A stretch of 11,386 nucleotides of DNA from a virus: UHGV virus genome UHGV-1619847; one strand, written 5' to 3'. A program made the position numbers and the translations under genes. Within the stretch, counting starts at the first letter, position 1; every line of letters starts with the position of its first letter. The notes beneath the pieces are model-generated. The model was not told where the DNA came from. It saw nothing but the letters and a program-made list of their open reading frames with translations, and ran no database searches. Positions 2,219 to 11,386 of this stretch are shown piece by piece.

Positions 2219-5899
<3,681 letters not shown>

Positions 5900-5919
<20 letters not shown>

Positions 5920-7219
5920 TCTCCCGCATATTGCCAGCATGGCCTTTAATGAGCCGCTGATGCTTGAACCCGCCTATGCGCGGGTTTTCTTTTGTGCGCT
6001 TGCAGGCCAGCTTGGGATCAGCCGCCTGACGGATGCGGTGTCCGGCGACAGCCTGACTGCCCAGGAGGCACTCGCGACGCTGGCATTATCCGGTGATGAT
6101 GACGGACCACGACAGGCCCGCAGTTATCAGGTCATGAACGGCATCGCCGTGCTGCCGGTGTCCGGCACGCTGGTCAGCCGGACGCGGGCGCTGCAGCCGT
6201 ATTCGGGGATGACCGGTTACAACGGCATTATCGCCCGTCTGCAACAGGCTGCCAGCGATCCGATGGTGGACGGCATTCTGCTCGATATGGACACGCCCGG
6301 CGGGATGGTGGCGGGGGCATTTGACTGCGCTGACATCATCGCCCGTGTGCGTGACATAAAGCCGGTATGGGCGCTGGCCAATGACATGAACTGCAGCGCA
6401 GGTCAGCTGCTTGCCAGTGCCGCCTCCCGGCGTCTGGTCACGCAGACCGCCCGGACAGGCTCCATCGGCGTCATGATGGCTCACAGTAATTACGGTGCTG
6501 CGCTGGAGAAACAGGGCGTGGAAATCACGCTGATTTACAGCGGCAGCCATAAGGTGGATGGCAACCCCTACAGCCATCTACCGGATGATGTCCGGGAAAC
6601 ACTGCAGTCCCGGATGGATGCAACCCGCCGGATGTTTGCACAGAAGGTGTCGGCATATACCGGCCTGTCCGTGCAGGCTGTGCTGGATACCGAGGCTGCA
6701 GTGTACAGCGGTCAGGAGGCCATTGATGCCGGACTGGCTGATGAACTTGTTAACAGTACCGATGCGATCACCATCATGCGTGATGCACTGGATGCACGTA
6801 AATCCCGTCTCTCAGGAGGGCGAATGACCAAAGAGACTCAATCAACAACTGTTTCAGCCACTGCTTCGCAGGCTGACGTTACTGGCGTGGTGCCAGCGAT
6901 GGAGGGCGAAAACGCCAGCGCGGCGCAGCCGGACGTGAACGCGCAGATCAACGCTGCGGTTGCGGCAGAAAACAGCCGCATTATGGGGATCCTCAACTGT
7001 GAGGAGGCTCACGGACGCGAAGAACAGGCCCGCGTGCTGGCAGAAACCCCCGGTATGACCGTGGAAACGGCCCGCCGCATTCTGGCCGCAGCACCACAGA
7101 GTGCACAGGCGCGCAGTGATACTGCGCTGGATCGTCTGATGCAGGGGGCACCGGCACCGCTGGCTGCAGGTAACCCGGCATCTGATGCCGTTAACGATTT
7201 GCTGAACACACCAGTGTAA
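5900..7219 (+). CDS. C: Head maturation protease gpC (S49-type prohead protease)
   Basis: GTG start at 5900 gives MTAELRNLPHIASMAFNEPLMLEP..., the lambda gpC N-terminus, and 439 aa, the lambda gpC length. The ORF-track start at 5765 would add 45 residues lying wholly inside B. AGGAGGAGAAGAG precedes the GTG. Confidence 0.88.
6614..7219 (+). CDS. nu3: Scaffolding protein gpNu3, in-frame nested within the 3' third of C
   Basis: In-frame ATG at 6614 (ATG GAT GCA = MDATRRMFAQKV...) gives 201 aa sharing the C stop, the same nested arrangement and length as lambda nu3. Start assigned by homology of arrangement; the RBS is weak. Confidence 0.6.
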   Translation: MDATRRMFAQKVSAYTGLSVQAVLDTEAAVYSGQEAIDAGLADELVNSTDAITIMRDALDARKSRLSGGRMTKETQSTTVSATASQADVTGVVPAMEGENASAAQPDVNAQINAAVAAENSRIMGILNCEEAHGREEQARVLAETPGMTVETARRILAAAPQSAQARSDTALDRLMQGAPAPLAAGNPASDAVNDLLNTPV

Positions 7220-7561: not shown

Positions 7562-7581
7562 CTTTACCCTTCATCACTAAA

Positions 7582-7603
7582 GGCCGCCTGTGCGGCTTTT
7601 TTT
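7582..7603 (+). terminator. Intrinsic-terminator-like hairpin between D and E
   Basis: GGCCGC-CTGT-GCGGCT stem-loop (6 bp, one G.U; flanking AA/TT could extend it) followed by a 7-T run (7597-7603), 20 nt after the D stop and 14 nt before the E start. Confidence 0.45.
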
Positions 7604-7616
7604 ACGGGATTTTTTT

Positions 7617-8642
7617 ATGTCGATGTACACAACCGCCCAGCTGCTGGCGGCAAATGAGCAGAAATTTAAGTTTGATCCGCTGTTTCTGCGTCTCTTTTTC
7701 CGTGAGAGCTATCCCTTCACCACGGAGAAAGTCTATCTCTCACAAATTCCGGGACTGGTAAACATGGCGCTGTACGTTTCGCCGATTGTTTCCGGTGAGG
7801 TTATCCGTTCCCGTGGCGGCTCCACCTCTGAATTTACGCCGGGATATGTCAAGCCGAAGCATGAAGTGAATCCGCAGATGACCCTGCGTCGCCTGCCGGA
7901 TGAAGATCCGCAGAATCTGGCGGACCCGGCTTACCGCCGCCGTCGCATCATCATGCAGAACATGCGTGACGAAGAGCTGGCCATTGCTCAGGTCGAAGAG
8001 ATGCAGGCAGTTTCTGCCGTGCTTAAGGGCAAATACACCATGACCGGTGAAGCCTTTGATCCGGTTGAGGTGGATATGGGCCGCAGTGCGGCGAACAACA
8101 TCACACAGTCCGGCGACACGGAGTGGAGCAAGCGTGACAAGTCCACGTATGACCCGACCGACGATATCGAAGCCTACGCGCTGAACGCCAGCGGCGTGGT
8201 GAATATCATCGTGTTTGATCCGAAAGGCTGGGCGCTGTTCCGTTCCTTCAAAGCCGTCAGGGAGAAGCTGGATACCCGTCGCGGCTCTCATTCCGAGCTG
8301 GAGACAGCGGTGAAAGACCTGGGCAAAGCGGTGTCCTATAAGGGAATGTATGGCGATGTGGCCATCGTCGTGTATTCCGGACAGTACGTGGAAAACGGCG
8401 TCAAAAAGAACTTCCTGCCGGACAACACGATGGTGCTGGGTAACACTCATGCACGCGGTCTGCGCACCTATGGCTGCATTCAGGATGCGGATGCACAGCG
8501 CGAAGGCATTAACGCCTCTGCCCGTTACCCGAAAAACTGGGTGACCACCGGCGATCCGGCGCGTGAGTTCACCATGATTCAGTCAGCACCGCTGATGCTG
8601 CTGGCTGACCCTGATGAGTTCGTGTCCGTACAACTGGCGTAA
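7617..8642 (+). CDS. E: Major capsid protein gpE (HK97-fold)
   Basis: 341-aa product MSMYTTAQLLAANEQKFKFDPLFLRLFFRESYPFTTEKVYLSQIPGLVNMALYVSPIVSGEVIRSRGG... matches lambda gpE. The ORF-track start at 7590 lies inside the upstream hairpin and is rejected. Confidence 0.93.
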   Translation: MSMYTTAQLLAANEQKFKFDPLFLRLFFRESYPFTTEKVYLSQIPGLVNMALYVSPIVSGEVIRSRGGSTSEFTPGYVKPKHEVNPQMTLRRLPDEDPQNLADPAYRRRRIIMQNMRDEELAIAQVEEMQAVSAVLKGKYTMTGEAFDPVEVDMGRSAANNITQSGDTEWSKRDKSTYDPTDDIEAYALNASGVVNIIVFDPKGWALFRSFKAVREKLDTRRGSHSELETAVKDLGKAVSYKGMYGDVAIVVYSGQYVENGVKKNFLPDNTMVLGNTHARGLRTYGCIQDADAQREGINASARYPKNWVTTGDPAREFTMIQSAPLMLLADPDEFVSVQLA

Positions 8643-8645
8643 TCG

Positions 8646-8672
8646 TGGCCCTTCGGGGCCATTTTCTCTCTG
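8646..8672 (+). other. Stem-loop with UUCG tetraloop and U-rich tail between E and FI
   Basis: TGGCCC-TTCG-GGGCCA (6-bp GC-rich stem, UUCG loop) at 8646-8661, followed by TTTTCTCTCTG, then the FI RBS GGAGGAG (8674-8680) and ATG at 8684. Confidence 0.45.
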
Positions 8673-8683
8673 TGGAGGAGTTC

Positions 8684-9070
8684 ATGACGAAAGATGAACT
8701 GATTGCCCGTCTTCAGGAGCTGGGTGAGCAACTGAACCGTGATGTCAGCCTGACGGGAACGAAAGAAGAACTGGCGCTCCGTGTGGCAGAGCTGGAAGAG
8801 GAGCTTGATGACACTGCCGATCAGGATACCCCTATCAGCCCGGAAAATGCGCTGACCGGACATGAAAATGAGGTTGTATCAGCGCAGCCGGATACCGTGA
8901 CTGATACGGCTGATCTGGTCACGGTTGTGGCACTGGTGACGCTGCATACTGATGCACTTCACGCCACGCGGGATGACACTGTGGCATTTGTGCTGCCGGG
9001 AACGGCGTTCCGTGTCTCTGCCGGTGTGGCAGCTGAAATGACAGAGCGCGGCCTGGCCAGAATGCAATAA
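8684..9070 (+). CDS. FI: DNA-packaging/head assembly protein gpFI
   Basis: MTKDELIARLQELGEQLNRDVSLTGTKEELALRVAELEEELDD... with RBS GGAGGAG 4 nt upstream. 128 aa, four codons shorter than my recollection of lambda gpFI (132 aa). Confidence 0.88.
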   Translation: MTKDELIARLQELGEQLNRDVSLTGTKEELALRVAELEEELDDTADQDTPISPENALTGHENEVVSAQPDTVTDTADLVTVVALVTLHTDALHATRDDTVAFVLPGTAFRVSAGVAAEMTERGLARMQ

Positions 9071-10424: not shown

Positions 10425-11165
10425 ATGCCTGTACCAAATCCTACAATGCCGGTGAAAGGTGCCGGGACCACCCTGTGGGTTTATAAGGGGAGCGGTGACC
10501 CTTATGCGAATCCGCTTTCAGACGTTGACTGGTCGCGTCTGGCAAAAGTTAAAGACCTGACGCCCGGCGAACTGACCGCTGAGTCCTATGACGACAGCTA
10601 TCTCGATGATAAAGATGCAGACTGGACTGCGACCGGGCAGGGGCAGAAATCTGCCGGAGATACCAGCTTCACGCTGGCGTGGATGCCCGGAGAGCAGGGG
10701 CAGCAGGCGCTGCTGGCGTGGTTTAATGAAGGTGATACCCGTGCCTATAAAATCCGCTTCCCGAACGGCACGGTCGATGTGTTCCGTGGCTGGGTCAGCA
10801 GTATCGGTAAGGCGGTGACGGCGAAGGAAGTGATCACCCGCACGGTGAAGGTCACCAATGTGGGCCGTCCGTCGATGGCAGAAGATCACAGCACGGTCAC
10901 AGCGGCAACCGGCATGACCGTGACGCCTGCCAGCACCTCGGTGGTGAAAGGGCAGAGCACCACGCTGACCGTGGCATTCCAGCCGGAAGGCGCAACCGAC
11001 AAGAGCTTCCGTGCGGTGTCTGCGGATAAAACAAAAGCCACCGTGTCGGTCAGTGGTATGACCATCACCGTGAACGGCGTTGCTGCAGGCAAGGTCAACA
11101 TTCCGGTCGTATCCGGTAATGGTGAGTTTGCTGCGGTTGCAGAAATCACCGTCACCGCCAGTTAA
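10425..11165 (+). CDS. V: Major tail tube protein gpV with C-terminal Ig-like (Big_2-type) domain
   Basis: ATG at 10425 preceded by GAGGA gives [31 protein letters not shown]..., 246 aa as in lambda gpV. C-terminal roughly 80 residues ([34 protein letters not shown]...ITVTAS) have Ig-like strand periodicity. The ORF-track start at 10395 lies inside U. Confidence 0.92.
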
Positions 11166-11180
11166 TCCGGAGAGTCAGCG

Positions 11181-11386
11181 ATGTTCCTGAAAACCGAATC
11201 ATTTGAACATAACGGTGTGACCGTCACGCTTTCTGAACTGTCAGCCCTGCAGCGTATTGAGCATCTCGCCCTGATGAAACGGCAGGCAGAACAGGCGGAG
11301 TCAGACAGCAACCGGAAGTTTACTGTGGAAGACGCCATCAGAACCGGCGCTTTTCTGGTGGCGATGTCCCTGTGGCATAACCATCC
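11181..11386 (+). CDS. G: Tail assembly chaperone gpG, 5' partial (runs off the window)
   Basis: ATG at 11181 preceded by GGAGAG; MFLKTESFEHNGVTVTLSELSALQRIEHLALMKRQAEQAESDSNRKFTVEDAIRTGAFLVAMSLWHNH... matches the lambda gpG N-terminus. The G/GT frameshift site is downstream of the window. Confidence 0.85.
   Translation, partial: MFLKTESFEHNGVTVTLSELSALQRIEHLALMKRQAEQAESDSNRKFTVEDAIRTGAFLVAMSLWHNH

Follow-up and report, generated by a model that had tools for sequence, protein, structure and literature searches.

We confirmed a conserved RNA hairpin between the major capsid gene E and gene FI of a lambda-type phage, i.e., an intercistronic element at the 3' boundary of the capsid cistron in a long late transcript. 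Our favoured reading, which we hold tentatively, is that this E-FI element blocks 3'-to-5' exonucleases and so stabilises the E segment of the message. The capsid protein is present in about 400 copies per particle and is made from the same transcript as proteins present in few copies. How phages set the ratio of capsid to other proteins is only partly understood, and the hairpin offers a cheap and testable handle on this question. It is also a ready-made part that could be used to tune gene ratios in engineered phage operons.

The window, i.e., the whole stretch of 11,386 nucleotides (11.4 kb) that we analysed, corresponds to the left end of a lambda-type late operon. Across nearly all of its length it shares 98% identity with phages Kati and PhiR49_1 and 97% with lambda, and its open reading frames follow the lambda order (Nu1, A, W, B, C/Nu3, D, E, FI, FII, Z, U, V). 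A search of 5426 complete E. coli genomes found a 201-bp stretch around the E-FI junction (8560-8760) at 90% identity or more in 3205 of them, which makes it a very common prophage sequence. Gene E (7617-8642, + strand) was recognised from its translation, with 341 codons plus a TAA stop at 8640-8642. It has PF03864 homologues, and the E/FI region shows 94-97% DNA identity to lambda-type regions annotated as encoding the major capsid protein E. The first cistron 3' of the hairpin is an open frame at 8684-9070 (+ strand), which is FI, the DNA-packaging chaperone, in the matching phage records. Genes around this junction are co-oriented and tightly packed. The operon has just two non-coding gaps of appreciable size, one of which holds the hairpin, and the remaining gaps downstream of E within the window span 11-16 nt and contain no hairpins.

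Past the stop codon of E the RNA reads UC-GUGGCCC-UUCG-GGGCCAU-UUUCUCUCU-GU-GGAGGAG-UUC-AUG. From the sequence and its predicted folds, the 5' arm GUGGCCC (8645-8651, + strand) and the 3' arm GGGCCAU (8656-8662) form a perfect 7-bp helix with five G-C pairs, whose outermost pair is a G.U that involves U8662. The tetraloop UUCG (8652-8655) is closed by the pair C8651-G8656. The original prediction had described a GGCCC-UUCG-GGGCC hairpin 4 nt past the E stop. We confirmed this core at 8647-8651 and 8656-8660, and the addition of a U-A and a G.U pair makes the full helix begin 2 nt past the stop and end 21 nt ahead of the FI start. The predicted U/C-rich tail followed by a ribosome-binding site of FI was equally borne out: the tail UUUCUCUCU lies at 8663-8671 (+ strand), and the Shine-Dalgarno sequence GGAGGAG at 8674-8680 (+ strand), 3 nt ahead of the ATG at 8684. 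Together with U8662 the tail provides a proximal UUUU, a count that includes this G.U-paired U, and CUCUCU then follows.

Judged from the window, the hairpin is only mildly unusual. Its 18 nt have a predicted dG of -12.6 kcal/mol, and with flanks it reaches -13.2 (z = -3.75), with none of 200 shuffles as stable. The stem-loop falls within the range of an intrinsic terminator (about 5-12 bp, G+C-rich, short loop), and was called by a terminator-pattern scan. However, such matches are common (16 in the window against 10.8 +/- 3.4 in shuffles), the 71-nt context has a z of -1.79, and the hairpin ranks 11th in stability among the compact hairpins of the + strand, hence our reserve. We estimate that the chance of finding such a hairpin in a 41-nt gap is a few per cent. 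The idea that it is an energy outlier in the window was rejected on the same rank, and because coding sequence contains many longer, imperfect hairpins of greater stability. What sets the E-FI hairpin apart is that it is perfect, minimal and placed in a sizeable non-coding gap. A terminator acting on the minus strand was also rejected, since the fold of the reverse complement is weaker (-10.9) and lacks a U-tail. An Rfam covariance-model search of both strands of the whole window gave no match at the gathering score.

The original prediction stressed the UUCG tetraloop of an unusually stable hairpin, an emphasis that was not supported. The sequence C8651-UUCG-G8656 does correspond to a UNCG loop with a C-G closing pair, as in C(UUCG)G hairpins. 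Yet, replacing UUCG by AAAA changed the predicted dG from -12.6 to -12.2, i.e., by no more than about 0.4 kcal/mol under our energy model, and loop swaps overall shifted it by at most 0.4-0.8 kcal/mol. It is the five G-C pairs that give the predicted stability, and we rejected the loop as its source. The UNCG class was also not kept among homologues of the hairpin. Many members of the lambda/N15/phi80 clade have UUCG, UCCG or UGCG, which all fit the class, whereas the N15/phi80 branch carries AUUC, UGUC, UGUU and UUUC, and the rare variants UUAG, UUCA and UUCU occur among homologous stems. This variation across the clade indicates that tetraloop identity is not under strong constraint.

The stem itself is conserved in close relatives. 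In 82 of them, taken from IMG/VR plus lambda, the GGCCC/GGGCC core never varies. Two of these sequences have a loop variant (UUCU, UUAG), the basal pair of the stem is either A-U or G.U, and variation is greatest in the tail. We then used a wider set of 19 distinct lambda/N15/phi80 sequences with 86-99% capsid identity. The five inner pairs were invariant in this set. The sixth pair was U-A in 12, C-G in three and U.G in one, and the seventh, outermost pair was G.U in seven, A-U in six and G-C in four, e.g., G.U in the window, A-U in lambda and G-C in N15. Overall, 96% of the cells were paired and the covariation score exceeded that of all 500 shuffles. In this alignment the covariation of the two outer pairs is thus modest but real.

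Conservation extends well beyond the clade. We collected capsid loci from reference genomes and, with a profile of distant members, from viral contigs, and retained 85 non-redundant E-family junctions that range from 99% down to 34% protein identity to E of the window. In all 85, the space from the capsid stop to the following ribosome site held a compact G+C-rich hairpin, with a typical dG of -9 to -22 kcal/mol. The stem starts 2-36 nt past the stop in most of them, and the hairpins often abut either the capsid stop or the next Shine-Dalgarno. Their stems represent about 30 sequence types, the majority of them mutually unrelated. For example, phage-21-type phages have CGGGGGC-GAAAU-GCCCCCG, a Providencia prophage CGGCGGG-GAAA-CCCGCCG, and Parashewanella GUCACACC-UUCG-GGUGUGAC. 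Pseudomonas-type loci have GAGGCGCGC-UGCG-GCGCGCCU, with internal compensatory changes within the lineage (GCGCGC/GCGCGC vs GCGCAC/GUGCGC). The 50-nt segment after the capsid gene is usually in the top few per cent of its own locus for compact-hairpin stability, and combining the ranks of 14 independent types with unrelated hairpins gives a Fisher p of ~1e-8. It is on these comparative data across lineages that we judged the hairpin to be non-random. Conservation in related phages had been set beforehand as a check on the original prediction, which passed it through both the invariant core of the close relatives and the unrelated hairpins at the same position in distant lineages. The conserved position and pairing support a function at the RNA level, and the comparisons make it likely that the hairpin has some function.

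Among the reference assemblies screened, some from unrelated organisms contained near-identical lambda capsid-gene DNA (96-100% protein identity to E of the window), e.g., Chromatium, Kitasatospora, Bradyrhizobium, Paenibacillus, Akkermansia, Prevotella, Corynebacterium and more. These loci (L091-L106, L123, L126, L129, L134, L137-L146 and others) are mostly on short or low-coverage contigs, and most likely represent lambda spike-in or contamination.

Hairpins follow the capsid gene in unrelated capsid families too. Directly after it, HK97 has GGGCGGG-GAAA-CCCGCCC-UUUU and P22 has AGGGGC-UGCG-GCCCCU-UUCUUUAUGGAG; these stems are unrelated in sequence to that of the window and follow unrelated capsid protein families. 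The post-capsid hairpin is already known as a feature, given the existing annotations. The GenBank record of N15 describes the homologous stem-loop between genes 8 and 9 as a putative rho-independent transcription terminator, that of HK225 describes its homologue as a rho-independent terminator, and that of HK97 places a putative terminator directly after gp5. The RefSeq record of P22 has a putative stem_loop after gene 5, noted as located like those of HK97 and lambda. Annotation of the element reportedly goes back more than 20 years, to the N15, HK97 and P22 genome papers of about 2000-2003. The elements of N15 and HK225 are true homologues of the E-FI hairpin, with the same GGCCC/GGGCC core. 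All four share with it the location ahead of the next ribosome site, just past the capsid stop, as well as the size, the G+C-rich stem and the shortness of the loop, with loop sequences that differ (UUCG in the window, AUUC in N15, UGUC in HK225 and phi80, GAAA in HK97, UGCG in P22). In the literature covered we found no demonstrated function for the N15, HK225, HK97 or P22 elements, nor an experimental study of the lambda element in the full-text literature, where older lambda and P22 papers are only partly represented. Partial termination, or the stopping of spurious non-antiterminated transcription, has been offered as a possible role in a paper on phage L (PMC8022706).

The U-tract expected of an intrinsic terminator, with at least 3 proximal U in a U-rich stretch of 7-9 nt directly past the stem, is kept much less than the hairpin. 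We counted U in the 8 nt past the G+C core in the 30 hairpin types. Half of them (15) had a U-rich tail (at least 5 U), and 12 had at most 3 U. The U-tract of the window is interrupted (UUUUCUCUCU), that of lambda is weak (UUGUUUCUCU), and the N15/phi80 tail (CCUUUCUGG; CCUUUCUGGAG) and all Pseudomonas-type loci have none that is usable. In several types the stem adjoins the Shine-Dalgarno directly, e.g., ...GGGCACCC-AUGGAG and ...GCGCCC-ACCGGAG. High-G+C hosts, whose terminator tails may be different, account for many of the U-poor cases. Since the hairpin is kept and the U-tract is not, the conserved requirement appears to be a hairpin rather than a complete intrinsic terminator.

Gene E also has a hairpin on its 5' side. 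The gap between D and E (7562-7616) folds into AAAGGCCGC-CUGU-GCGGCUUUU leading into U7 (7579-7603, + strand). This hairpin has the shape of a canonical terminator, and was missed by the terminator scan because its stem extends into the U run. It is followed by ACGGGAUUUUUUUAUG, a U-rich leader for E with a weak Shine-Dalgarno. Most E-family loci, including those with as little as 41-48% protein identity, retain this GCCGC/GCGGC stem and U run ahead of the capsid start, with a loop that varies freely. The run measures U6-8 in most loci and is shorter in some distant ones (L156, L160). The homologue in mEp237 is annotated as a rho-independent terminator. We observed that the sequence of the D-E stem is conserved far deeper than that of the E-FI stem. 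The two hairpins thus bracket the capsid gene. It is possible, if rather doubtful, that the pair makes a discrete, selectively stabilised capsid message from an antiterminated transcript of more than 20 kb, and that the same solution arose independently in the lambda-E, HK97 and P22 modules. If so, mRNA processing and stability would help to set the capsid excess of tailed phages, besides translation initiation.

From the observed structure, position and conservation of the E-FI hairpin we infer read-through, cleavage, exonuclease blocking and an effect on protein ratios, in the following way. During lytic growth, Q-modified RNA polymerase would read through the hairpin. The late mRNA would later be cut by an endonuclease downstream, either at the U-rich tail or past it, or else where translation is less dense, from FI to the tail genes. 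Exonucleases working from 3' to 5' (PNPase, RNase II) would then degrade the RNA until they stall at the G+C-rich stem. Such a stall would let the segment containing D and E outlive the downstream segment, and so add to the excess of capsid over head-completion proteins. The D-E hairpin may act likewise, at the 5' side of E or at the 3' side of D. With polymerase lacking Q, the E-FI hairpin of the window may also terminate weakly, given its proximal UUUU. The roles of stabiliser and terminator are not exclusive, since a terminator hairpin also protects the 3' end that it makes. A structure-only barrier to exonucleases predicts a hairpin kept without a U-tract, which a canonical terminator does not.

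The mechanism would be of the type known as selective RNA processing and stabilisation in malE-malF. The REP element of malE-malF (E. coli), the cip-cel operon (Clostridium cellulolyticum) and many E. coli operons (Dar & Sorek 2018) resemble the E-FI arrangement in having a stable stem-loop 3' of the more abundant cistron. Such hairpins are conserved among relatives, need no U-tract and can occur several times per operon, as at E-FI. In E. coli operons, protective structures on the 3' (malE) and 5' (papBA) sides are often conserved, with several per operon (PMC5927463; PMC10667835). Two traits of the malE type are found here: structure is conserved rather than sequence, and a stable structure lies just 3' of one cistron. 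The likeness, which comes from sequence comparison, has its limits, as the E-FI stem is short (7 bp, 18 nt) relative to REP elements and its transcript, unlike those of the malE-malF type, is the product of an antiterminated polymerase on the late operon of a phage.

Several points argue against a stabiliser. A 7-bp stem is a modest barrier, and terminating ribosomes would melt its 5' arm each time, since it starts 2 nt past the E stop. The major tail gene V is also highly expressed and has no hairpin after it; we looked for one in the 16-nt gap between V and G and found none, and for this reason rejected the idea that every abundant structural gene is followed by a hairpin. Differing yields of lambda late proteins were reportedly put down mainly to translation initiation by Sampson et al. 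in 1988, which would leave little for mRNA stability to explain. At the V-G junction (11163-11184) the gap holds only a Shine-Dalgarno. The HK97 record, by contrast, places putative terminators on either side of the major tail gene.

One phage provides a natural disruption of the element. In PhiR70_1 (L166, PV340577.1) an IS4 element with the transposase InsG (2944-4420) is inserted inside the E-FI hairpin, at a site that corresponds to 8647-8658 of the window. The 12-bp target duplication GGCCCTTCGGGG leaves a truncated stem beside E and a restored core before FI. The insertion also brings its own strong hairpin with U7, about 80 nt past the E stop. The record gives E. coli C as propagation host, and PhiR70_1 apparently grows. 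Hence, an intact hairpin next to E seems to be dispensable for growth, and late transcription can seemingly cross a 1.4-kb insert with a strong terminator-like hairpin. This does not exclude a quantitative role of the hairpin.

Other explanations of the E-FI hairpin involve termination. It resembles canonical intrinsic terminators in its G+C-rich hairpin with a stable tetraloop, its pyrimidine/U-rich tail and its place after the most highly expressed structural gene, and differs from them in the interrupted U-tract, the translated stop 2 nt away and a polymerase that Q makes resistant to termination. In T7, the terminator T-phi lies after the capsid gene 10. The late operon of lambda is transcribed by Q-modified polymerase, for which terminator hairpins are blocked. 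The main rival of the stabiliser is a conditional terminator or insulator, which would stop RNA polymerase that lacks Q or outruns translation, e.g., when the lysogen is transcribed spuriously or by read-through. Polymerase carrying Q would ignore the hairpin, whose purpose would be the tight silencing of late genes, not the setting of ratios. The G+C stem with its proximal UUUU, the match in the terminator scan, the annotation of homologues or equivalents in N15, HK225 and HK97 as terminators, the U-rich tails of about half of the hairpin types and the full U7 run of the D-E companion all fit this explanation. Operons under processive antitermination are known to carry many internal terminators against spurious transcripts (PMC8955417), and the option was proposed for phage L (PMC8022706). 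Still, we consider it unlikely: 12 of the 30 types, including N15/phi80 and all Pseudomonas-type loci, lack a usable U-tract, the position is tied to the capsid gene instead of being scattered along the operon, the other gaps after E (11-16 nt) are free of hairpins, and a stem 2 nt past the stop is in the worst place for termination when the gene is translated. The other half of the original prediction, besides the stabiliser that we favour because the hairpin is kept and the U-tract is not, was a partial attenuator. This would end a fixed fraction of transcription in lytic growth, such that FI and the following genes receive fewer transcripts than E. The terminator-like shape in the window and the location, with a very abundant product on one side and scarcer ones on the other, are what one would expect of an attenuator, and partial termination is among the possibilities listed for such sites (PMC8022706). 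The proposal is nonetheless weakened to the point of being improbable. Polymerase loaded with Q is reported to have a narrowed RNA exit channel in which terminator hairpins cannot form (PMC9388147). Moving a stop codon from 28 to 5 bp upstream of a terminator lowered its efficiency from ~90% to <10%, owing to repression by the trailing ribosome (PMC4824070), and here the stem begins 2 nt past the stop of the late gene that is translated most heavily. Further, lambda has only a weak U-tract and many relatives have none, all essential tail genes, including the high-copy V, lie downstream, and PhiR70_1 still has a listed propagation host in spite of its IS4 terminator-like hairpin. Taken together, read-through by Q-modified polymerase, the proximity of the stop and the lack of a U-tract in half of the related elements point away from termination in lytic growth and towards a role that depends on structure only.

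Such a role could also be translational. A hairpin that re-forms behind the ribosomes terminating on E might insulate FI, by preventing sliding or re-initiation at its start, or might tune access to its ribosome site. This would need no U-tract, and all 85 hairpins do lie between the capsid stop and the next Shine-Dalgarno, often abutting one of them. We regard it as similarly improbable nevertheless, because pairing of the FI Shine-Dalgarno was not above that of shuffled-spacer controls (fraction at or below the observed value 0.28-0.56) and because insulation leaves the similar D-E hairpin, between two highly expressed genes, unexplained. The same comparison, made in the window, lambda, N15 and phi80, led us to reject sequestration of this Shine-Dalgarno by the U/C-rich tail or by upstream pyrimidines. 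Finally, the hairpin might have no RNA function and be an inherited palindrome, a site acting at the DNA level or a chance feature of a short spacer. Its rank as only the 11th most stable compact hairpin of the window, the frequency of terminator-pattern matches and the choice of the hairpin as an IS4 target in PhiR70_1 are in keeping with this. Set against them are the roughly 30 different stems at the same position, the same layout in the unrelated HK97 and P22 modules, the substitutions that preserve pairing, the invariant core beside a variable flanking tail in the 82 close relatives, and the weaker reverse strand (-10.9) that lacks a U-tail, which together make an absence of RNA function very improbable.

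We also considered whether the 5' base of the stem provides the start codon of an extended FI. The frame from the AUG or GUG at this place is open in lambda, N15 and phi80, and an in-frame ATG/GTG occurs in the window as well. The candidate was rejected, as about half of such codons are out of frame (e.g., in L147, L113, L109 and L117) and many lineages have no start codon there. The phi80 record (L004, NC_021190) starts FI at the GTG of the hairpin 5' base (953-1405), whereas in HK225 (L002), with the same sequence, FI starts at the downstream ATG with a Shine-Dalgarno (989-1405). The longer coding sequence of phi80 is probably an annotation artefact.

Other hairpins of the window lie further upstream. 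Within C/Nu3, near its start and just past the end of B, a terminator-like GAACCCGC-CUAUGC-GCGGGUUU is followed by UCUUUUGUG (5966-5987, + strand). Upstream of Nu1 there are two adjoining stable hairpins, AGCCUCGU-AUUC-GCGGGGCU followed by UUUUAUUG (266-285, + strand), and AAAGCCACUC-CCUACA-GAGUGGCUUU (302-327, + strand). Placed before the terminase genes, these two resemble the ends of transcription units.
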